DNA of 59,995 nt, filler included. It is 9 parts of 9 records of this genome, joined end to end, with 100 filler letters (N's around TTAATTAATTAA, not from the genome) between each part and the next. Parts side by side here need not be neighbours in the genome. Positions count along the whole stretch, not along the records: positions 33,141 to 38,230 come from SRR31147125_45793; 8 more parts are not named here. One strand, written 5' to 3'. The position numbers were made by a program, and so were the translations under genes. The notes under the pieces are model-generated. The model ran no database searches, was not told the DNA's origin, and worked only from the letters and a program-made list of their open reading frames with translations. Numbering within the stretch: the first letter of the stretch is position 1; each line of letters starts with the position of its first letter. This document shows, piece after piece, positions 2,573 to 52,461 of the stretch.

Positions 2573-3148
2573 TTAAGTTAGTTCTTCATATTCATCATGT
2601 TCAATAACTTTAAAGTCTTCAAAAGGCCATAGTACTGCATAGGCCTTACCTTTTATCATATCTCTTGGTAATGCGCCGACGCTCATACTCCTTGAATCTT
2701 TGCTGTTGTTTCTATTATCACCCATTACAAAATAGCAATCTTCTGGTATTGTAGTTTCGCTGTAATCAGAATACATTTCTTCCTTTATATAAGGCTCATC
2801 TACAATTATTTCATTTATATATAATATACCGTTTTCAATTTTAATTGTATCTCCAGGCAAAGCTATAATTCTCTTTACAAAGTTTTCCCTGCTTCCTGGG
2901 TATTTTGTTATTACAATATCTCCCCGTTCTATGTTTTCATCGTTCCAGTAAGGAATCTTAGTCACTAATACTCTTTGATCTGTAAATAAGGTTGGCTGCA
3001 TTGATGCTCCATCAACACGCACTAGCTGCCCTATATAGTTATGTATTACTAAAACCAATGCAACAGCAACAATAATGGAAACGATCCATTCCATAATCTC
3101 TTTTGCAATAGCTTTGTCGTCAAATTTTTTCTGTTCTTGTTTTAACAT
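2573..3148 (-). CDS. lepB: Signal peptidase I
   Basis: N-terminal TM, catalytic GASMQPT (Ser), FVKRII (Lys) and GDNRNNSKDSR. Confidence 0.95.
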   Translation of the reverse strand: MLKQEQKKFDDKAIAKEIMEWIVSIIVAVALVLVIHNYIGQLVRVDGASMQPTLFTDQRVLVTKIPYWNDENIERGDIVITKYPGSRENFVKRIIALPGDTIKIENGILYINEIIVDEPYIKEEMYSDYSETTIPEDCYFVMGDNRNNSKDSRSMSVGALPRDMIKGKAYAVLWPFEDFKVIEHDEYEELT

Positions 3149-3168
3149 GGATTCGCCCTTCTTTCAGC

Positions 3169-3360
3169 TTAATCAATAACGCTTTTTAAACTTTTGTTAA
3201 AATCGCGTCTTGTAAGCATTACTACCCTGCCGCAATTCTGTCCTAAACATTTTATTTTTATGTCTGCTCCGACACGTATTATTTTCCATCTATTACAGCC
3301 GCATGGATGAGGCTTTTTCATACTTACAGTATCTCCAAGTTTGTAATTTAAATCTTGCAA
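3169..3360 (-). CDS. DUF951 family protein
   Basis: Signature MKKPHPCG..W.IIRVGADIKIKC..CGR.VML.R. Confidence 0.9.
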   Translation of the reverse strand: MQDLNYKLGDTVSMKKPHPCGCNRWKIIRVGADIKIKCLGQNCGRVVMLTRRDFNKSLKSVID

Positions 3361-3451
3361 AAAAGTCCCTCCATTAAAATATACATTCTAAATTATAGCA
3401 CACTATTAATTAGTGTTCAATTAGCTAGATGAAACAAGTAGATGGTATGTT

Positions 3452-4333
3452 CTATAAGTCTTCTTCATTGGATGTTTCTAATTGTTTAATTTGGGTTATT
3501 AGCACCTTATTTTGCATATATTCCATTATTTGCTCGGCTCTTATTTCATAGGTCATATGACCTACATTTTTGATAGTTTCCAAAGATGAATGCTTGATAC
3601 TTTCTAGCAGCCTTTCACTCATAGAAATTGGATGTGCATTATCGTATTCTCCCCAGATCAGCAAAACAGGGCAGTTAATTAAATATAAATGAGAATAAAC
3701 TGCACTATCATTATAATCTCTTAAAAGATATAAAAACCAGTTTCTTGTAGCTCTGCGTTCAAAGGGCTCATATGTCTGCCTTTCTATAGATGGCGTTATT
3801 TTAGTTTTATTAAAGTATATCCATCTTAAAAACTTGTAGATTCTGCGTCTATTTAAAAAGTTTACAAGTACCTCTCCAAGCATAGGTGATATTAGCCGTT
3901 TGTAATAAAACGGATATTGGTTGGTCATAGAGCCAGGTGAGCATAATGTAAGGCTTTTTACTCTGTCAGGATATAATTGCGAAATACACATTGAATATGT
4001 AGCACCCTCTGCAGCACCGAAAAAATGAGCAGAGTCTATTTTCAAAACCTTCATAAACTCACATATAACATCAGCCATGTGCTCGATTGCAAACTTTTGC
4101 CTTTGATCCATCGTGGAATAACCACAGCCAGGTAAGTCAACGGCGATTACGCCATAGCCTTTAGAGGTAAGCTGATCATATATATTACGCATTGAAAACA
4201 TAGAAAAGCCTAACCCATGCAGCAAAATAACACAATCATTTCCCTCATGCTCAATGTAATGAATTTTATTATCTAGTATTTGTACGTTTTTCCCTACTTT
4301 AGGGGAATTAACCCAAAAGGATTTTACGCTCAT
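3452..4333 (-). CDS. Alpha/beta-hydrolase fold protein (nucleophile elbow GAAEG)
   Basis: Motifs LLHGLG, DLPGCGYS, WGEYD and GH. The expected GxSxG reads GAAEG. Confidence 0.85.
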   Translation of the reverse strand: MSVKSFWVNSPKVGKNVQILDNKIHYIEHEGNDCVILLHGLGFSMFSMRNIYDQLTSKGYGVIAVDLPGCGYSTMDQRQKFAIEHMADVICEFMKVLKIDSAHFFGAAEGATYSMCISQLYPDRVKSLTLCSPGSMTNQYPFYYKRLISPMLGEVLVNFLNRRRIYKFLRWIYFNKTKITPSIERQTYEPFERRATRNWFLYLLRDYNDSAVYSHLYLINCPVLLIWGEYDNAHPISMSERLLESIKHSSLETIKNVGHMTYEIRAEQIMEYMQNKVLITQIKQLETSNEEDL

Positions 4334-5287: not shown

Positions 5288-5387
5288 NNNNNNNNNNNNN
5301 NNNNNNNNNNNNNNNNNNNNNNNNNNNNNNNTTAATTAATTAANNNNNNNNNNNNNNNNNNNNNNNNNNNNNNNNNNNNNNNNNNNN
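5288..5387. other. Artificial contig spacer
   Basis: N-run + TTAATTAATTAA (stops in all six frames) + N-run, 100 nt. Identical spacers occur at 12282-12381, 18984-19083, 27075-27174, 33041-33140, 38231-38330, 44847-44946 and 52362-52461. Confidence 0.98.
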
Positions 5388-5580: not shown

Positions 5581-5676
5581 TGACTTTTGTATAAAATCAT
5601 GATTACAGATCTCATAATGTAACAAAAAGGCCCTGCCATCGTTTAATTATAAACTCATATTAAATCAGGAGTCGAA

Positions 5677-7054
5677 ATGCAATTCCCAGCTGAACCTTTC
5701 AAAATAAAAGTCGTTGAACCCATAAAAAAAACAACGAGACAAGAGCGAGACCAACTCATCCGAAAAGCCGGTTTTAATGTATTCGGTTTACCGGCTGAAA
5801 GTATCTTTGTTGATTTATTAACAGACAGCGGTACATCAGCCATGAGCGATTCCCAATGGGCTGGCATAATGATGGGTGACGAATCCTATGCCGGAAGCCG
5901 TAATTATTATCATTTTGAAGAATCAATTAAAAATATCTTTGGCTTCAAGCACGTTATCCCCACGCATCAGGGACGCTCAGCTGAAAACTTGTTGTTTTCG
6001 GTTAGTGTCGATGAAGGGGATATCATTCCAAACAATATTCACTTTGATACAACCCGTGCGAATATACAACATAAAAAAGGAAAACCTGTTGACCTTGTCA
6101 TAGATGAAGGCCTCGATCCGCATATAGAACATCCCTTCAAGGGAAATATGGACATCAGTAAACTCGAAAACCTCCTAAAGGATGTTGGCCCGGAACGCGT
6201 TCCATTGATATTAATGACGGTAACAAACAATAGTGGTGGCGGTCAGCCTGTCTCCATGGAAAATATTAGAAAAGTCCACCAAGTAGCAAAAAAATATAAC
6301 AGGCCTTTTTTTCCTGGACGCGTGTCGATTTGCTGAAAATTGCTACCTAATAAAAGAAAGAGAACCGGAATTCGCCGACAAATCAATCCTCGACATAGCC
6401 AGGGAAATGTTTTCTTATGCGGATGGTTGCACGATGAGTGCCAAAAAGGATGGTTTGGTCAATATCGGTGGTTTCCTGGCCATGAATGATGACAAACTTG
6501 CCGAACAAGCATCTAATTTGCTGATACTTGTGGAAGGTTTTCCAACATACGGTGGCCTTGCCGGCAGAGATTTGGAAGCTATTGCACGGGGATTACAGGA
6601 AGTGTTAAATGAAGATTACCTGGCCTTCCGCATTGGCCAAATCAGATATCTCGGTGAATTATTAGACTCTGCTGGTGTCCCGATTTTAAAACCGGTTGGC
6701 GGTCATGCGATTTACCTGAATGCGCGAGAATTTTTACCAAATATCCCACAACATCAGTTTCCAGCCCAGGCTCTCACCATTGCATTATATCGGGAAGCAG
6801 GTATTCGGGCCGTCGAAATTGGTGGACTCATGTTTGCGGAAAAGGACCCGGAAACAGGTGAGGAAAAATTTCCGGAACTGGAACTTGTTCGTCTTGCTAT
6901 TCCTCGAAGAGTATACACGTCCATGCATATGAATTATGTCGCCGAGTCTATCAAAAAGATATATCACGATCGTGACTCAATAAAGGGTTTGAAAATCATA
7001 CATCAGGCACCATTATTACGTCATTTTACAGCCCGACTGGAGGAAATTACTTGA
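5677..7054 (+). CDS. tnaA: Tryptophanase (PLP beta-eliminating lyase), split by a frameshift at T7 6306-6312
   Basis: Motifs DLLTDSGT, GDESYAGS, HQGR, MSAKKD (PLP Lys), RLAIPRRVY and LRHFTAR (His as in tryptophanase, where tyrosine phenol-lyase has Phe). Removing one T restores FFLDACRFAEN. Confidence 0.9.
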
Positions 7055-12281: not shown

Positions 12282-12381
12282 NNNNNNNNNNNNNNNNNNN
12301 NNNNNNNNNNNNNNNNNNNNNNNNNTTAATTAATTAANNNNNNNNNNNNNNNNNNNNNNNNNNNNNNNNNNNNNNNNNNNN

Positions 12382-18923: not shown

Positions 18924-19083
18924 ACGTAGAATGCTTTTTGGAACTATACATAGATCCAGCGGAATAAAGCATAAGCTTTAAAANNNNNNNNNNNNNNNNN
19001 NNNNNNNNNNNNNNNNNNNNNNNNNNNTTAATTAATTAANNNNNNNNNNNNNNNNNNNNNNNNNNNNNNNNNNNNNNNNNNNN

Positions 19084-27074: not shown

Positions 27075-27174
27075 NNNNNNNNNNNNNNNNNNNNNNNNNN
27101 NNNNNNNNNNNNNNNNNNTTAATTAATTAANNNNNNNNNNNNNNNNNNNNNNNNNNNNNNNNNNNNNNNNNNNN

Positions 27175-33040: not shown

Positions 33041-33140
33041 NNNNNNNNNNNNNNNNNNNNNNNNNNNNNNNNNNNNNNNNNNNNTTAATTAATTAANNNN
33101 NNNNNNNNNNNNNNNNNNNNNNNNNNNNNNNNNNNNNNNN

Positions 33141-33633
33141 GCTCGACGATACCGATTGTATGGTGGATATTGCCCGCTATTTCTTGTCGTTTACGCAGGA
33201 GGAGTCGTGTGGAAAATGTACTTTTTGCCGTGTTGGGACAAAGCGAATGCTCGACATACTTGACCGTATAGTTGAAGGCAAAGGAAAACAAGGCGATATC
33301 GAAGACCTGGAACATTTGGCTGAATGGACGGCAAAAGGAAGCCTCTGTGGACTGGGAAGAACATCGCCAAATCCGGTGTTGAGTACGCTAAAATATTTCC
33401 GCGAAGAATACGAAGCGCACATTAACGGCACCTGCCCAACCGGAAAATGTACCGAACTCATAACTTATTCTGTTAACGATGAATGTATCGGTTGTACTAT
33501 GTGTGTACAAAAATGCCCTGTAGATGCCATTCCATTCACTCCGCACGAAAAACATTCAATAGATACCGAGCTGTGCATAAAATGCGACGCATGCCGTGCT
33601 GCATGCCCGGTTGATGCTATTGATGTGAAATAG
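33141..33633 (+). CDS. NuoF/HydB-like NADH-binding subunit, C-terminal part
   Basis: ESCGKCTFCRVG and SLCGLG (N3 cluster), CPTGKC, and a 2x[4Fe-4S] ferredoxin tail. Confidence 0.92.
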
Positions 33634-33667
33634 GTTGCAGGTTGCAAGTTTCAGGATAACAAGTTAA
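33631..33667 (+). repeat. Left heptad-repeat array
   Basis: TAGGTTG CAGGTTG CAAGTTT CAGGATAA CAAGTTA, starting at the upstream TAG stop. Confidence 0.85.
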
Positions 33668-33677
33668 AGAAAGTATT

Positions 33678-34049
33678 ATGAAAAGTTATAGGGATTTGGA
33701 GGTTTATCAGACGGCTTATAAATTGGCTATAAAAGTTCATCGAATGACATTAACCTTGCCTAAATATGAAATGTATGAGCAAGGAAGTCAGGTCAGGCGT
33801 TCAACAAAAAGTGTAAAAGATAATATTGTTGAAGGTTATGGACGAAATCGTTATAAGAATGAATTTATTAGATTTTTAGTTTATGCCCATTCTTCGTGCG
33901 ACGAGGCAACATCTCAACTAATAATGATTGATGAAATTCATTTTGAATCAAAGGGTTTAACAGAATTAATTGCTGAATACGAAATACTTGGCAGGAAAAT
34001 CAACAAATTCATCGATTACGTAGAAAAACATTGGAATGAGAACAAATAA
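33678..34049 (+). CDS. Four-helix-bundle protein (23S rRNA-IVP / TIGR02436 family)
   Basis: Signature SYRDLEVYQ.AY.L...LPKYE.Y..GSQVRRS..SV..NIVEGYGR....EFIRFL.YA..S..E. Confidence 0.93.
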   Translation: MKSYRDLEVYQTAYKLAIKVHRMTLTLPKYEMYEQGSQVRRSTKSVKDNIVEGYGRNRYKNEFIRFLVYAHSSCDEATSQLIMIDEIHFESKGLTELIAEYEILGRKINKFIDYVEKHWNENK

Positions 34050-34085
34050 CCTGCAACCTGTAACTTGTAACGTGAAACTTATAAC
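34047..34085 (+). repeat. Right heptad-repeat array (inverted relative to the left array)
   Basis: TAACCTG CAACCTG TAACTTG TAACGTG AAACTTA TAAC, abutting ATG 34086. Confidence 0.85.
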
Positions 34086-35633
34086 ATGATAAAACTTAAA
34101 ATAAATAACAAGGAAATAGAAGTCGAAAACGGCACTTCAGTAATGAAAGCTGCTCAACAAATGGGCATCGACGTTCCTAACATGTGCTGGTACGATGAAT
34201 TGGAACACTTTACTTCGTGTATGTTGTGCATGGTGAAGGACAACAAAAACGGCAAACTGTTTCCATCGTGTTCGGTTAAGGCAACCGAAGGTATGGAGAT
34301 TATTACCGACGATGAGGAAGTGCACGAATCACGAAAGACAGCATTGGAATTGTTACTCAGCGAGCATGTTGGCGATTGTGAAGCCCCTTGTCAGGTGGCG
34401 TGTCCGGCGCACATGGATATTCCAAAAATGAACCGACTAATTGCTGCCGGAAAATTTGACGATGCTTTGGCTGTGGTGAAAAAAGACATTGCTTTGCCTG
34501 CTGTTTTGGGGCGAATTTGCCCGGCTCCATGCGAAGGCGCTTGCCATAGAAAAACTGTTGATGAACCTGTATCGATTTGTTTGTTAAAACGGATTGTTGG
34601 TGATGACGGAAATACGGCGGATTGGAGTCCACCGCAGCCAACAGGAAAAAAGGTTGCCGTAATTGGTGCCGGACCTGCTGGATTAGCTGCATCCTATTAT
34701 CTTCAACTAAAAGGAATTCAGACAACACTTTTCGATAAAAACCTAAAAGCGGGTGGATTGCTTCGTACAGAAATCAACGATGAGATTCTTCCTAAAAATG
34801 TTTTGGATAAGGAAATAGATTTAATTCTGAAAACCGGAGTCGAATTTCAGGGAGGAAAAGAAATTGATGCTGCGTTTTTCGAAAAGTTGAAAGCTGATTT
34901 TGATGTTGTGGTTGTTGCGACCGGAGCCATTTCTGAAGATTCAGAAAAATTTGGCTTAAAAACCGGAGCTAAAGGAATAGTTGCTGACAGGAATACATAC
35001 CAAACTGCCGATGAAAAAATATTTGCCATTGGCAATGTGTTGCGTTCGTCGCGACTGGCGGTTCGTTCAGTCGGTCAGGGAAAAGAAGTGGCTTTTTCAG
35101 TAATGCAGTTTTTGAGTGGTCAGGAAATTAAAGGCGAACCGCGTTTGTTTAATTCACGATTTGGAAAATTAGTGAAAGATGAATTTGCCGAATACCTGAA
35201 AGAATCGGTTGAAGGCAAGCGAACATTTCCCAAAGAAGGTGGTCGTTCCGGTTTTTCAAAAGAAGAAGCCATTGCCGAAGCCAAACGTTGTTTGCATTGC
35301 GATTGTCGCGCCATTGATAACTGTAAATTGCGGAATTATTCTGAGCAGTATCATGTCGAGCAAAAGCGCTTTAAAACCAGCGAACGCCACCATGTTTCAA
35401 AACAAATTAACCACGACCTTGTTGTTTATGAACCAGAAAAATGTATAAAGTGTGGTATTTGCGTTCGACTGACAGAAAAGTACAGGGAGCGATTTGGCTT
35501 TACATATATTGGCCGGGGATTTGATGTTAAAATAGGCGTTCCTTTCAACGAAGAATTGAAAAATGGTTTAACAGAAACAGCAAAAAAAGTAGCTGAGAGT
35601 TGCCCTACTGGTGCGATATCGCTCAAAGAATAA
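34086..35633 (+). CDS. NuoG-N/GltD-like Fe-S flavoprotein: [2Fe-2S] + GltD clusters + FAD + 2x[4Fe-4S]
   Basis: Motifs C..........C..C...C, APCQVACP, GRICPAPCE..C, GAGPAG, RCLHCDC, CIKCGIC and CPTGA. Confidence 0.85.
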   Translation: MIKLKINNKEIEVENGTSVMKAAQQMGIDVPNMCWYDELEHFTSCMLCMVKDNKNGKLFPSCSVKATEGMEIITDDEEVHESRKTALELLLSEHVGDCEAPCQVACPAHMDIPKMNRLIAAGKFDDALAVVKKDIALPAVLGRICPAPCEGACHRKTVDEPVSICLLKRIVGDDGNTADWSPPQPTGKKVAVIGAGPAGLAASYYLQLKGIQTTLFDKNLKAGGLLRTEINDEILPKNVLDKEIDLILKTGVEFQGGKEIDAAFFEKLKADFDVVVVATGAISEDSEKFGLKTGAKGIVADRNTYQTADEKIFAIGNVLRSSRLAVRSVGQGKEVAFSVMQFLSGQEIKGEPRLFNSRFGKLVKDEFAEYLKESVEGKRTFPKEGGRSGFSKEEAIAEAKRCLHCDCRAIDNCKLRNYSEQYHVEQKRFKTSERHHVSKQINHDLVVYEPEKCIKCGICVRLTEKYRERFGFTYIGRGFDVKIGVPFNEELKNGLTETAKKVAESCPTGAISLKE

Positions 35634-35711
35634 TGAATGTTGAATGATGATTAACGATTTGAGAAGTAAATTCAAAAATCAATATTCGTTAATCGAAATT
35701 CGTTAATCAAT
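35632..35711 (+). repeat. ORF-less inverted heptad-repeat element
   Basis: AATGAAT GTTGAAT GATGATT AACGATT TGAGAAG TAAATTC AAAAATC AATATTC GTTAATC GAAATTC GTTAATC, in unbroken 7-nt phase from stop to start. Confidence 0.8.
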
Positions 35712-36824
35712 ATGAAAAACAAAGTTCTATTAGTTGCATTAATCTTGCTTACAGGAGTTCACTGTTTTGCGCAGTTAGGTTCCTCGTGGCCCATCTTCCG
35801 TGGCAATCAAAATCTTACCGGCGTTTCGAAAACAACACTCCCGGCATCTCCCAAATTGTTGTGGACATTCGAAACCGGCGACAATATAAAAGGAGCACCC
35901 GTTGTTGCCGATGGAAAAGTTGTAATTGGCTCAACCGATGGAGTAGTGTATTGCATCGATACAAGCGGAAAACTAATCTGGAAGTTCGATACCGGTAACT
36001 CCATTGAGGCACCGGCGTTAATTATAGATAACACGGTTTATATCGGCAATCTCGATGGAAAAATGATCGCAATCGACTTAAATTCTGGAGAAAAGAAATG
36101 GGAATACGAATGCGAAAATCAGGTTATAGGTTCGGCAAATTGTTGGAAGGTTGGCGATAAAACACACATCGTTTTTGGAAGCTACGACTATTACCTGCAC
36201 TGTGTTGATGCAGAAACAGGCAAGGGACTTTGGAAATACGAATCGGATAACTTTATAAACGGAGCCGCAGCTTGTGCTGATGGCGTTGCCATGTTCGGCG
36301 GCTGCGACGGTTTTTTGCATTTGGTTGATATTGCTACCGGAAAATTGGTGAAAAAGATTGATGTGGCAACTTATGTGGCAAATTCAATTGCAGTTGAAAA
36401 TAGCAAAGCCTATATTGGCGATTATGATGGTCGGTTTTTTCAGGTAGATATAAAAACCGATAAAACAAATTGGGTGTGGGAACATGAAAAAACAAAACTC
36501 CAGTTTATTGCTTCGCCGGCTTTAATTGGCGATAAGGTGTTGACTGCCAATCACAATAAATTCCTGTATTGTTTCGATAAAAATAATGGCAAGAAATTGT
36601 GGGAATACAACACCGGCCGACATGTTGAAGCATCGCCGGTAGTTGTGAAAGACAAAGTGATTGTTGCAAATATGCGCGGTGATTTGGCCATTGTGAACCT
36701 TTCGGATGGTAAACCTGTTTGGACATACGAAATCGGAGGCCAAATAATAAACAATCCGGCCGTGGCTAGAGGTAAAATATTTGTTGGGGCTTACGATGGA
36801 AATGTGTATTGTTTTGGGGAATAA
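35712..36824 (+). CDS. Secreted PQQ-like/BamB-type beta-propeller
   Basis: Signal peptide, WPIFRG and repeated G...W.[FY] blades. Confidence 0.88.
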   Translation: MKNKVLLVALILLTGVHCFAQLGSSWPIFRGNQNLTGVSKTTLPASPKLLWTFETGDNIKGAPVVADGKVVIGSTDGVVYCIDTSGKLIWKFDTGNSIEAPALIIDNTVYIGNLDGKMIAIDLNSGEKKWEYECENQVIGSANCWKVGDKTHIVFGSYDYYLHCVDAETGKGLWKYESDNFINGAAACADGVAMFGGCDGFLHLVDIATGKLVKKIDVATYVANSIAVENSKAYIGDYDGRFFQVDIKTDKTNWVWEHEKTKLQFIASPALIGDKVLTANHNKFLYCFDKNNGKKLWEYNTGRHVEASPVVVKDKVIVANMRGDLAIVNLSDGKPVWTYEIGGQIINNPAVARGKIFVGAYDGNVYCFGE

Positions 36825-36859
36825 TTATAATATGAAGCAGATAATTCTGTGTTGACAAA

Positions 36860-36894
36860 TTTTCAGACCTCTGCCTTCTAACTTCTAACTTTTT
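36860..36894 (+). repeat. Degenerate right-arm heptad array
   Basis: TTTTCAG ACCTCTG CCTTCTA ACTTCTA ACTTTTT, just before ATG 36898. Confidence 0.55.
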
Positions 36895-36897
36895 TGC

Positions 36898-38199
36898 ATG
36901 AACATCATACAAATCATACCCGGTTCAGGTGGCAGTTTTTACTGCGGAAACTGTTTGCGCGACAGCAAATATGTCGATGCGCTCCGAAAACTAGGACATC
37001 AGGTGATAAAGGTGCCAATGTACCTGCCGCTATTTTCGGAGGAAACAGAAACCGCAGATATTCCGATTTTTTACGGTGCAATTAGTACTTACGTTAAACA
37101 GGTGTATCCAATTTTCCGAAAAGCGCCAAAGTGGTTCGATAAGCTCCTGAATTCAAAGCCCATGATGAAAATGGCAGCGTCGATGGCTGGCTCAACACGT
37201 GCCAAAGGTTTGGAAGATATGACCATTTCGATGTTGTTGGGAGAACAGGGCGAGCAAAAAGAGGAACTTGAAAAAATGGTGGACTGGATTGCCGAACATT
37301 GCCAGCCCGACGTGATTCATATTTCCAATGCTTTGCTTTTAGGATTGGCCAAGCGTTTAAAAGAAAAAACGGGTGTCCCGATTGTTTGCTCCTTACAGGA
37401 TGAAGATGTTTGGGTTGATGCCATGCAACCGCAATTTCAGCTGAAGATTTGGGATTTGATGCACGAGCGGGCCAAAGATGTGGATGCAATGGTTGCAGTA
37501 AGCAATTATTTTGCAGAGGAGATGAAACAACGCATGAATCTTCCAGATGAAAAAGTACATACATTTTACCTGGGAGTTGATGTGGAGGACTATCCATTTA
37601 TTCCGGTAAGAGAAAAGCCCCGAAATGTTGGCTATATCTCGCGCATGTGCCACAAAGACGGATTCGATATTGTTGTGGATGCTTTTATTGACCTCAAAAA
37701 GAAACCGGGTTTTGAAGACGTAAAACTGATTGCCACAGGCGGATTAACCGGTGACGATAAAAAGTTTCTGAAAGAGCAGAAACAAAAAATAAAGATTGCC
37801 GGATTAATAAGCGATTTCGAAATAATCGAAGAATTTGAAGGCGATGCGCGGCATAACTTTTTTAAGAAAGTATCGATGGTTTCGGTGCCGGTTAGAATTG
37901 GAGAGGCATTTGGCATGTATCAACTTGAATCAATGGCATCAGGAGTACCCATTGTACAGCCTGCATTGGGGGCTTTCCCCGAAGTTGTTGAAGTTTCGGG
38001 CGGCGGAGTTACTTACCAACCGAATTCTCCTGAAAAATTAAGCGAAGCCTGGGCCGAACTTTTGGATAATCATAAAAAACTGGAAGAATTAGGTAATGCA
38101 GGTTACGAAGGCACAAAACAAAAATTCAATATTCACAATCATGCAGAAGAAATTGTAGGTTTGTATGAAAGTTTGATAGTTCGACTCCGCTCACTATGA
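36898..38199 (+). CDS. GT4 glycosyltransferase with N-terminal YCGNC motif
   Basis: GT-B features GYISR, EAFGMYQLESMASGVP and GAFPEV. Confidence 0.88.
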   Translation: MNIIQIIPGSGGSFYCGNCLRDSKYVDALRKLGHQVIKVPMYLPLFSEETETADIPIFYGAISTYVKQVYPIFRKAPKWFDKLLNSKPMMKMAASMAGSTRAKGLEDMTISMLLGEQGEQKEELEKMVDWIAEHCQPDVIHISNALLLGLAKRLKEKTGVPIVCSLQDEDVWVDAMQPQFQLKIWDLMHERAKDVDAMVAVSNYFAEEMKQRMNLPDEKVHTFYLGVDVEDYPFIPVREKPRNVGYISRMCHKDGFDIVVDAFIDLKKKPGFEDVKLIATGGLTGDDKKFLKEQKQKIKIAGLISDFEIIEEFEGDARHNFFKKVSMVSVPVRIGEAFGMYQLESMASGVPIVQPALGAFPEVVEVSGGGVTYQPNSPEKLSEAWAELLDNHKKLEELGNAGYEGTKQKFNIHNHAEEIVGLYESLIVRLRSL

Positions 38200-38230
38200 C
38201 GTCATGCTGAGCGCAGTCGTCATGCTGAGC
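38180..38230. repeat. REP-like palindromic repeat cluster at contig end
   Basis: TTCGACTCCGCTCACTATGAC and GTCATGCTGAGCGCAGTCG form an imperfect inverted pair, followed by a further GTCATGCTGAGC. Confidence 0.7.
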
Positions 38231-38330
38231 NNNNNNNNNNNNNNNNNNNNNNNNNNNNNNNNNNNNNNNNNNNNTTAATTAATTAANNNNNNNNNNNNNN
38301 NNNNNNNNNNNNNNNNNNNNNNNNNNNNNN

Positions 38331-44846: not shown

Positions 44847-44946
44847 NNNNNNNNNNNNNNNNNNNNNNNNNNNNNNNNNNNNNNNNNNNNTTAATTAATT
44901 AANNNNNNNNNNNNNNNNNNNNNNNNNNNNNNNNNNNNNNNNNNNN

Positions 44947-52361: not shown

Positions 52362-52461
52362 NNNNNNNNNNNNNNNNNNNNNNNNNNNNNNNNNNNNNNN
52401 NNNNNTTAATTAATTAANNNNNNNNNNNNNNNNNNNNNNNNNNNNNNNNNNNNNNNNNNNN

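Follow-up and report, generated by a model that had tools for sequence, protein, structure and literature searches.

A small gene for a four-helix-bundle (4HB) protein lies between two mirror-image runs of 7-base words in an mRNA of a marine Bacteroidota lineage. The window, meaning the whole stretch of 59,995 nucleotides that was analysed, consists of contigs chained by N-linkers, and the contig hosting the locus occupies positions 33141-38230, with a linker at 33041-33140. The following features were found:

33160..33633, plus strand: 3' end (157 codons) of a NuoE/NuoF-like flavoprotein gene (Pfam NADH_4Fe-4S, E 3e-34, and two Fer4 domains)
33630..33666, plus strand: left (5') arm, made up of about five RGTTNCA-type words of 7-8 nt (TRF, inverted repeats, register scan and span of the MFE stem)
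33667..33677, plus strand: short A-rich leader from the left arm to the start codon, unpaired in the MFE fold
33678..34049, plus strand: gene of the 4HB protein, PF05635/TIGR02436, 123 aa, 372 nt including the stop (profiles, AF2 and Foldseek)
34047..34085, plus strand: right (3') arm, complementary to the left one and made up of five to six TGNAACY-type words
34086..35633, plus strand: gene combining a NuoG N-terminal 2Fe-2S domain, a GltD-like flavoprotein and Fer4, 515 aa (Pfam Fer2_4, Fer4_20, Pyr_redox_2 and Fer4_Nqo3)
35628..35714, plus strand: second hairpin made of 7-nt words, its loop free of genes (TRF period 7 and 14; fold of -21.3 kcal/mol)

The upstream gene is present only as its last codons because the contig with the cassette starts at 33141. 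Full-length relatives of its product have 778-798 aa, and the one in locus L005 carries 2Fe-2S_thioredx, Complex1_51K, SLBB, NADH_4Fe-4S and Fer4 domains. The TAG stop of this gene (33631-33633) lies within the left arm, and the right arm runs from the TAA stop that closes the 4HB gene (34047) to one base before the next ATG (34086). Re-reading the sequence placed both arrays, and the 372-nt open reading frame between them, exactly where the initial annotation had located them. The second hairpin fills the spacer between the stop of the NuoG-like gene and the ATG of a beta-propeller gene, and a near-identical sequence occupies the equivalent position in two relatives (L003 and L006); it is an arm structure of the cassette kind without cargo. 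No sigma-70-type promoter-like or terminator-like site was seen on the plus strand inside the cassette, which carries little weight as the sigma-70 consensus is unfit for Bacteroidota. In Rfam, no family, rRNA included, matched positions 33141-36000 at an E value up to 1.

Period-7 arrays were detected by TRF at 33632-33655 (3.4 copies) and 34047-34071 (3.6 copies), and a repeat search returned inverted pairs with lengths of 26, 17 and 12 nt and identities of 81, 88 and 100%, respectively. When the left arm was slid without gaps along the reverse complement of the right arm, identity peaked at eight offsets spaced by exactly 7 nt (53-72%, compared with 2-47% at the remaining offsets). Pairing in several 7-nt registers, which had been proposed from the letters of the arrays, is therefore real. 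Pairing of the two spacers gave a duplex energy of -29.4 kcal/mol, and none of 1000 dinucleotide shuffles came as low (mean -15.3, sd 3.2). Folding of the cassette region (33620-34095) gave an MFE and a centroid structure that were both closed by the arm stem, with a z-score of -2.48 and one of 100 shuffles folding as well. The proposed juxtaposition of the upstream stop and the downstream start is borne out in this fold, where both lie at the foot of one stem, and in 46 relatives, where the median distance of the outer arm ends is 6 nt to the upstream stop and 7 nt to the downstream ATG. Clusters of the arm word or its complement were found nowhere else in the window. With at most 72% pairing in the best single register without gaps, the stem is far from perfect, and selection on the arms may act on words rather than on base pairs.

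The protein encoded in the loop belongs to the family to which it had been assigned. Residues 5-109 align to positions 1-105 of the 106 positions of Pfam PF05635 (23S_rRNA_IVP) with an E value of 5.5e-25 and 88.1 bits against a cut-off of 33.8, and TIGR02436 is matched with an E value of 1.4e-27 and 96.1 bits against a cut-off of 24. The AF2 model (pLDDT 93.9) has helices at residues 8-24, 29-55, 60-87 and 94-118. In Foldseek, this model matched 2gsc with TM scores of 0.87/0.91, 2rld with 0.64-0.75 and Avd (4dwl) with 0.73/0.82, so that the suggested Avd-like fold was recovered as well, and Avd was also matched within ribonucleoprotein structures of diversity-generating retroelements (DGR). 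A phmmer comparison with 2gsc gave an E value of 3.3e-6. The PDB entry 2gsc contains 5 chains, and the protein (Xcc0516) is reported as a homopentamer forming a pentameric ring (described in PMC4990558). The 4HB protein is under purifying selection, with dN/dS of 0.10-0.21 against orthologues from the same junction, at saturated dS. Of 61 sampled Bacteroidota genomes, 52 contain the family, and a single genome has up to 19 matches.

The gene-in-hairpin layout is not confined to the locus: of 63 family members examined, 46 have it, and every one of these uses a word of its own. At a cut-off of at least 24 for the own-arm score, 23 of 34 and 23 of 29 family members passed, compared with 65 of 812 cross-locus arm pairs. 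An earlier cross-locus control of duplex energies was blurred by orthologous cassettes and short flanks; after related pairs had been excluded, own and cross-locus energies differed (Mann-Whitney p 1.6e-7) and the own energy lay below the 5th percentile of the cross-locus pairs in only 12 of 34. Whole-cassette MFE structures were closed by at least 15 flank-to-flank pairs in 45 of 63 cassettes versus 30 of 123 shifted control segments (24%). The TRF-based arm pairing missed the arms of L007, L012 and L016, and the counts do not draw on this pairing. A typical arm has about 24-40 nt, roughly four to five words. Of 30 family genes, 25 have the orientation of both neighbours. Where an ABC-transporter operon carries cassettes at two junctions in a row, the distribution of word types departs from the orthology of the junctions, and the 4HB proteins of same-genome paralogues are 63 and 67% identical compared with 57-65% for orthologues. 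Altogether, 4HB proteins that are 57-67% identical were found between quite different arm words. No period is commoner than 7 among the tandem repeats of the 828 kb examined, where it accounts for 118 of 439 TRF rows. In the open-access literature searched, no paper on the 4HB cassette outside rRNA was found.

The history of the cassette was read from 79 loci orthologous to the downstream NuoG/GltD-like gene, 66 of which had a measured junction. Twenty-two junctions had 15 nt or less, in line with the statement that the flanking genes are normally adjacent; 11 had 16-60 nt, 19 had 61-250 nt and 14 exceeded 250 nt. A profile search of the 79 loci and the window located 4HB genes in L007, L008, L012, L016-L019 and the window, only at the studied junction, and remnants at the junction in L005 and L013, so that intact or decayed copies amount to 10 among the orthologous junctions. 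The 4HB proteins of the junction are 80, 75, 55 and 54% identical to the window protein, whereas the other 52 aligned family members reach at most 46%. In a host-gene tree from a quick search, on which decayed copies were placed only if long enough, six intact and two placeable decayed copies fell within one starred clade of 17 rows (98), and none of the 47 rows outside this clade had a cassette gene.

Among these relatives, the junction is tight, filled, decayed (gutted), reduced to arms only or occupied by another cargo, which agrees with the proposal of a discrete gene-plus-arms cassette. The arms have outlived the gene in L005 and in L008/L019, and lone single arms unable to fold are left in L001 (ten words) and L003 (a right-type array only). 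At the junction of L045, a 123-aa GxxExxY gene (TIGR04256) lies between inverted runs of the word CACAGAG. When filled and tight junctions were compared by eye, no direct repeat that would indicate a target-site duplication was seen at the borders. As all copies lie in one clade, one old insertion with later decay is suggested and is regarded as likely. From these comparisons we infer a single entry in the ancestor of the Draconibacterium / Maribellus / Prolixibacteraceae clade. Comparison of the junctions shows that the cassette entered a once-tight stop-start junction of the NuoEF-like / NuoG-GltD-like flavoprotein pair and was then passed on vertically; in several lineages, it decayed to gutted genes, lone arms or nothing. 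The initial annotation had proposed a small mobile or regulatory cassette. At this junction, the data fit an old insertion with vertical inheritance, not recent movement, and mobility is weakly supported.

Among orthologous cassettes, the neighbouring gene has an identity of 26-44% at 4-fold sites, versus 63-86% for the spacers, and alignment scores unmatched by 300 shuffles were obtained for the right arms in 8 of 10 orthologue pairs and for the left arms in 4 of 10. The arm words persist although 4-fold sites are saturated. The arms also have a constant polarity: G exceeds C in the 5' arm in 22 of 23 and 22 of 23 cassettes of two family sets (G-rich in 44 of 46). The left arm in the window is likewise G-rich and C-poor (10 G and 4 C in the local arm alignment), and the gene-less hairpins along the operon have the G-rich arm first, too. 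Mismatches between arms showed no excess of G-U over A-C in either family set (35 versus 29 in set 1, 43 versus 48 in set 2), and transversions were the largest mismatch class (74 and 62). Without a G-U excess, there is no nucleotide-level sign of selection for RNA pairing, and the constant strand polarity together with the conserved word sequence suggests that the arms are also read as single strands.

The element is very probably a copy of a widespread gene-plus-heptad-arms cassette with an anatomy like that of the intervening sequences (IVS) of 23S rRNA that bear an open reading frame. As a whole, the findings are best explained by an IVS-type cassette that shares the transcript of the operon and owes its insulation to a long-range stem, a reading to which we assign a probability of roughly 0.5. 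Having no recognisable promoter or terminator of its own, the cassette would be transcribed together with the operon. In the mRNA, the arms would pair into an imperfect, long-range stem of about 30-37 bp that could slip between registers. With the 4HB message looped out by this stem, the upstream stop and the downstream start would come to lie at the foot of it. As in rRNA intervening sequences, the stem might be a substrate for RNase III, which 5 of 5 related genomes encode. Polar effects of the insertion on the downstream gene would be avoided either by such cutting or by a ribosome that opens the foot of the stem as it terminates on the upstream gene. As RNase III leaves cut RNA unjoined, cleavage would split the operon message, with an effect on the downstream gene that could be help or harm. 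An RNA stem with RNase III-type processing or insulation is a tentative part of the proposal, held with somewhat less than even confidence.

A further idea, speculative and rather improbable, is that a pentameric 4HB ring reads a single-stranded arm with one 7-nt word per subunit, like TRAP with its spaced triplets. The protein might then sense or set the opening of the stem, and in this way govern both its own message and how the flanking genes are coupled. Hints in this direction are arms of four to five words, the homopentamer of 2gsc, the fixed polarity, the conservation of words and loose multi-register pairing that lacks a G-U signature. The occurrence of 57-67% identical proteins between quite different words speaks against it.

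Other explanations assign the arms to the host or to the DNA level. The heptad arrays might serve the host as an mRNA stabiliser or translational-coupling device, with the 4HB gene as a passenger in the loop, in analogy to the 7-bp STRR hairpins between cyanobacterial hupS and hupL, which may raise transcript stability or couple translation (as put forward in PMC2670836). Gene-less hairpins do fill spacers, both in the window (35628-35714, near-unchanged in L003 and L006) and at F/G junctions of Marinifilaceae (e.g. L050 and L070); arms survive the loss of the gene, abut stop and start codons and keep the G-rich-first polarity where no gene is enclosed. However, the hairpin is not needed by the host, because 22 of the 66 orthologous junctions do without one and function at 15 nt or less. 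Arms that stand alone and cannot fold, as the ten words of L001 and the right-type array of L003, do not fit such a role either, and the strong purifying selection on the 4HB protein is unlike that on a mere passenger. We regard this explanation as unlikely. Slightly less credit is given to a selfish DNA element, in which a recombinase encoded elsewhere would recognise the arms at the DNA level, either as terminal inverted repeats or as a recombination site of the hairpin type, with the RNA stem as a by-product. Arm mismatches without G-U excess that are mostly transversions speak for it, and unrelated cargos (4HB and GxxExxY) share one architecture at one junction in different lineages. In the ABC-transporter operon, words do not track orthology, and paralogues are as close as or closer than orthologues, which hints at exchange between cassettes; the abundance of the family (52 of 61 genomes, up to 19 matches in each) points the same way. 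Against this, there was one gain at the junction followed by vertical descent over saturated divergence, no target-site duplication was found at the borders by eye, and no transposase or integrase was present among open reading frames of at least 150 aa within about 4 kb in L007 and L012. A symmetric terminal repeat also does not predict arms with a polarity fixed relative to transcription.

Several further identities were considered and disfavoured or rejected. An insertion sequence or MITE is unlikely, with no direct repeat seen at the borders by eye and no transposase in the cassette. A link to IS200-like elements was dismissed because the Y1 transposase genes of L017 carry hairpins of a different element (GTCC..GGAC), not heptad arms, which also counts against the selfish DNA reading. 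An Avd accessory protein of a DGR would be in keeping with the fold match to 4dwl (TM 0.73/0.82) and to Avd in DGR ribonucleoprotein structures. However, the gene is directly flanked by conserved flavoprotein genes, both here and in the six relatives that carry an intact copy, and open reading frames of at least 150 aa within about 4 kb in L007, L012 and L017 code for propeller, flavoprotein, glycosyltransferase, ABC ATPase and one IS200-like protein, with no reverse transcriptase among them. The matches to the non-DGR members 2gsc and 2rld are also much stronger, which leaves the DGR identity highly improbable, and it was rejected for its neighbours and the missing reverse transcriptase. Finally, the complementarity might be a chance by-product of two unrelated simple repeats, as period 7 is the commonest period. 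This is refuted by the duplex energy, which 0 of 1000 shuffles reached, by the recurrence of a gene between complementary arms, with an individual word in each case, in 46 of 63 relatives, and by the conservation of the arms across saturated divergence, so that its probability is close to nil.

The IVS-type cassette transcribed with the operon would have consequences beyond the locus. Intervening sequences of rRNA with an S23p reading frame have been without explanation for more than 25 years (according to PMC4990558). If they are a special case of a commoner operon-spacer cassette, the element becomes open to study in ordinary mRNAs. If so, the very large 4HB family, which occurs in 52 of 61 sampled Bacteroidota genomes, would gain a fixed nucleic-acid partner, and a candidate source would be at hand for the surplus of tandem 7-nt repeats seen in bacterial spacers. 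The locus is useful because tight, filled, gutted, arms-only and other-cargo states are all seen at one junction in 66 relatives, and it offers two testable properties of the arms, namely strand polarity and word conservation without a G-U signature.

Among known systems, the protein resembles Xcc0516 (2GSC), BT_0352 (2RLD) and Avd (4DWL) in its four-helix up-down bundle, and these entries show chains up to D or E. Avd, however, works with a reverse transcriptase, and none is among the open reading frames of at least 150 aa near the cassettes of L007, L012 and L017. Cassettes with GxxExxY (TIGR04256) are similar in architecture, as at the equivalent junction of L045 (that locus only), with a different cargo of a PD-(D/E)XK-like nuclease-type fold, which is unrelated to the four-helix bundle. 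STRR of filamentous cyanobacteria are tandem 7-bp repeats that form a hairpin in the spacer of the co-transcribed genes hupS and hupL, where a role in stability or translational coupling was suggested (PMC2670836), and the layout is alike in this respect. They belong to another phylum, no loop gene is mentioned for STRR in the relevant passages of that paper, and the words differ among the cassettes described here.

A close parallel is the 23S rRNA IVS, as described for helix 45 of Coxiella burnetii, with a 28-bp terminal stem, cutting by RNase III in vitro and tandem heptamers beside the S23p reading frame (PMC4990558). The cassette differs in its position between two cistrons of an mRNA instead of helix 25 or 45 of 23S rRNA, and its protein is under purifying selection, whereas the Coxiella reading frame is described as decaying and probably untranslated (PMC4990558). 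Excision by RNase III was shown for the rRNA element (PMC4990558) and is a tentative prediction for the present cassette. Both have a loop protein of one family (S23p/PF05635), terminal inverted repeats that enclose an element of about 430-450 nt in a stem of about 28-37 bp, tandem heptamers next to the reading frame and a host transcript that is not disabled (for the rRNA element as given in PMC4990558).

The initial annotation described a four-helix-bundle gene set in an operon between inverted arrays of 7-nt words, and this description of 33631–34085 matches the sequence as read.

Features of the cassette in the window
33631–33633, + strand: TAG stop of the upstream gene, from reading the sequence
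33631 (upstream TAG) to about 33666, + strand: left arm, 7–8-nt words of type RGTTNCA
between left arm and four-helix-bundle ORF, + strand: A-rich leader of 11 nt
33678–34049, + strand: four-helix-bundle ORF, 123 codons
34047 (TAA stop of this ORF) to 34085, + strand: right arm, words complementary to the left arm
34086, + strand: ATG of the downstream gene

The window joins nine contigs by linkers in which a 12-base all-frame stop spacer is flanked by 44 N on each side (5288–5387, 12282–12381, 18984–19083, 27075–27174, 33041–33140, 38231–38330, 44847–44946 and 52362–52461); genes adjoining linkers are cut, and adjacency across any linker is meaningless. The contig bearing the cassette is about 5 kb long (33141–38230). 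The left array had been said to begin at the end of a NuoF-like gene, and the stop is indeed there, but this gene is incomplete: as the contig starts at 33141, only its last 157 codons are present.

Both arrays have a period of 7 (Tandem Repeats Finder), and a repeat search returned inverted pairs of 26 nt at 81%, 17 nt at 88% and 12 nt at 100% identity. When the left arm was slid without gaps along the reverse complement of the right arm, identity peaked at eight offsets spaced by exactly 7 nt (53–72%, versus 2–47% at every other offset), and therefore several pairing registers hold, as had been proposed. The spacer duplex is predicted at -29.4 kcal/mol, a value reached by none of 1000 dinucleotide-shuffled pairs (mean -15.3, sd 3.2), and the arm stem closes both the minimum-energy and the centroid fold of the whole element (z -2.48), in agreement with the looping-out envisaged earlier. 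No clusters of the arm word or its complement were found elsewhere in the window. The arm arrays are real, and their pairing far exceeds what chance would give. A hairpin of 7-nt words that encloses no gene (35628–35714), folding at -21.3 kcal/mol, fills the next spacer, between the stop codon of the NuoG-like gene and the beta-propeller ATG, and is found at the same place with nearly the same sequence in two related loci (L003 and L006).

Membership of the enclosed protein in the family of rRNA intervening sequence proteins was confirmed by matches far over cut-off to PF05635 (E 5.5e-25) and TIGR02436 (E 1.4e-27). An AlphaFold model built with 57 relatives as input has four helices (pLDDT 93.9), and Foldseek ranked Xcc0516 (2gsc, TM 0.87/0.91) and BT_0352 (2rld) at the top, followed by the diversity-generating retroelement (DGR) protein Avd (4dwl, TM 0.73/0.82), which bears out the suggested kinship of fold. 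A role as DGR accessory gene was ruled out, because in three relatives none of the ORFs of at least 150 aa lying within about 4 kb encodes a reverse transcriptase. In an alignment of 57 family members, Q38, S45, N49, I50, E52 and E76 (window numbering) form a set of nearly invariant polar residues grouped in helices 2 and 3; this cluster looks like a binding or active site more than a purely structural core. The upstream gene encodes a NuoE–NuoF-like fusion (domains taken from the L005 copy, a sister lineage of the window), of 778–798 aa in relatives. By domain assignment, the downstream gene encodes a GltD-like flavoprotein with a NuoG-type 2Fe-2S head, and beta-propeller and glycosyltransferase genes come next.

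A search with the downstream protein retrieved 79 loci from Draconibacterium, Maribellus, other Prolixibacteraceae, Marinifilaceae and further Bacteroidota, and both flanking genes could be placed in 66 of them, the window counted. The spacer between these genes is -4 to 1340 nt long.

Spacer length at the 66 junctions
15 nt or less: 22 junctions
16–60 nt: 11 junctions
61–250 nt: 19 junctions
over 250 nt: 14 junctions

States of the junction with, or related to, a four-helix-bundle gene
intact copy: window, L007, L012, L016, L017, L018
internal deletion, frame kept: L008, L019
decayed: L005, many stops, split by a methyltransferase ORF
decayed: L013, N-terminal stub only
gene-less, within the clade of the intact copies: L001 (733–820), only an array of some ten GTTGCTG/GTTACTG words
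gene-less, within this clade: L003, right-type array alone
gene-less, within this clade: L006, L010 and L015, TTTAAAG-type words

Comparison of empty and filled junctions thus gave what the initial annotation had looked for, with spacers from tight to over 250 nt and intact, decayed and arms-only states. With a profile from 34 family members, four-helix-bundle genes in these loci were found at this junction only. On a host-protein tree from a quick search, which included only those decayed copies long enough to place, the six intact and two placeable decayed copies fall into one well-supported clade of 17 rows, and none of the 47 rows outside this clade carries a copy. Word arrays at the stop codon are frequent in gene-less junctions of the clade. 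The array of L001 directly follows the stop codon, with gene and right arm both absent, and looks like a leftover, expanded left arm. In L005 both arms are kept around the stop-broken gene (2658–4000), and the splitting ORF encodes a SAM-methyltransferase of 218 aa (3082–3738).

Four-helix-bundle proteins of the junction share 80, 75, 55 and 54% identity with that of the window, and all other aligned family members at most 46%. The dN/dS ratio among junction proteins is 0.10–0.21, with dS saturated. The simplest history would be a single insertion, at a time when the clade ancestor had a tight junction, after which the cassette was inherited vertically with its protein functional and decayed several times over. 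The proposed mobile cassette is a discrete insert, and the comparison shows no sign of recent movement at this junction.

Further lineages accommodate other inserts at this junction. In L045 a 123-aa GxxExxY gene (TIGR04256, E 1.5e-43) lies between inverted CACAGAG runs (3413–4000), the same architecture with unrelated cargo. L052 carries a PIN-domain ORF preceded by a small ORF (3039–4000), L021 and L025 a 72-aa ORF whose HicB-like match is weak and below cut-off, and Marinifilaceae junctions hairpins of 7-nt words without a gene. In L017, the spacer that follows the NuoG-like gene contains two IS200-like segments (5650–6850), one with a Y1_Tnp ORF (E 1.8e-25), the other on the minus strand and read by eye; their short hairpins are of GTCC..GGAC type and contain no heptads. 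The same IS200-like sequence follows a truncated four-helix-bundle gene in L100, a family locus elsewhere (about 1780–1890, in gene-sense orientation).

Between orthologous cassettes, 4-fold sites of the neighbouring gene are 26–44% identical and thus saturated; the two spacers reach 63–86% identity when aligned. Among ten pairs, each with 300 shuffles, the alignment score was matched by no shuffle in eight for the right arm and in four for the left arm. Because arm alignments beat shuffles, the word GTTNCNN is kept in sequence, beyond pairing alone.

For the family at large, 30 members from five related genomes (sample 1) and 29 taken one per genome from other Bacteroidota (sample 2) were collected; the survey for the latter found the family in 52 of 61 genomes. 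Together with four copies from the junction, the set comprises 63 cassettes, orthologous sets included. Upstream flanks were locally aligned to the reverse complement of downstream flanks, with a threshold score of 24. The expectation of complementary arms across the family was borne out for 23/34 cassettes (sample 1 with junction copies) and 23/29 (sample 2), but arms were weak or absent in 11/34 and 6/29; 65 of 812 mismatched locus pairs reached the same score. Folds of whole cassettes were closed by at least 15 flank-to-flank pairs in 45/63, versus 30/123 control segments shifted by 750 nt. With start codons of flanking genes set by rule and uncurated, the median distance of the outer arm ends is 6 nt to the upstream stop and 7 nt to the downstream ATG. 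From the left arm end to the cassette's own ATG the median is 30 nt, and the gene is co-directional with both neighbours in 25/30. The word differs by cassette lineage (AGCTNCA, GAGTTAC, AATTACG, GAAGWCG, CAGTGWT, TTTAAAG, GTATCAG and TATTTAG among examples).

Cassettes also occupy two consecutive junctions of an ABC-transporter operon in three related genomes (L080/L085 in G001, L081/L100 in G003, L082 in G002). There, junction A holds AGCTNCA in G001 but GAGTTAC in both G002 and G003, and AGCTNCA is found at junction B of G003; word types do not track the orthology of the junctions. Same-genome paralogues are 63 and 67% identical, versus 57–65% for orthologues, which hints at possible exchange between neighbouring cassettes.

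Arm mismatches showed no excess of G-U over A-C (35 versus 29 in sample 1 with junction copies, 43 versus 48 in sample 2), and transversions outnumbered every other class (74 and 62). At nucleotide level this spectrum bears no mark of selection on RNA pairing, which counts against a simple stem model. In gene sense, G outnumbers C in the 5' arm of 22/23 cassettes of either sample (351 G versus 186 C, and 421 versus 182), although these 46 cassettes contain orthologous sets and represent fewer than 46 independent events. Gene-less hairpins inspected had the same G-rich-first order along the operon. Two family members are exceptions: in L119 C-rich same-sense arrays flank the gene on both sides, and in L137 the left arm is C-rich, with polarity reversed and more same-sense copies downstream. 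The prevailing polarity is not expected of a symmetric DNA repeat and points to a role of single strands or of the direction of transcription or translation; the 3' arm might possibly double as a G-poor leader of the downstream gene.

Beyond the demonstrated anatomy, insertion history, constraint on protein and arms and generality of the layout, a mechanism can be proposed. The cassette would be transcribed together with the operon, its arms would pair over a long range into a slippery stem of about 30–37 bp, and this stem might be handled like that of an rRNA intervening sequence. All five related genomes carry an RNase III gene. The Coxiella intervening sequence is reported to have a 28-bp terminal stem, to be cut by RNase III in vitro with ends mapped, and to carry tandem GACAGAT heptamers adjoining its S23p ORF (PMC4990558). 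Alternatively or in addition, ribosomes might open the stem: because the upstream stop sits within the stem foot, a terminating ribosome would have to open the first words, which would free the last words before the downstream ATG. For cyanobacterial 7-bp STRR hairpins between hupS and hupL, translational coupling is named as one possible role (PMC2670836).

No description of a four-helix-bundle cassette outside rRNA was found in the open-access literature searched. The closest described systems are ORF-bearing intervening sequences of 23S rRNA, which differ in location, as placement within rRNA is a defining feature that the window cassette lacks, and resemble it in protein family, terminal stem, heptamers and size. 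The locus adds the negative G-U result, strand polarity and a dense series of states at one junction.
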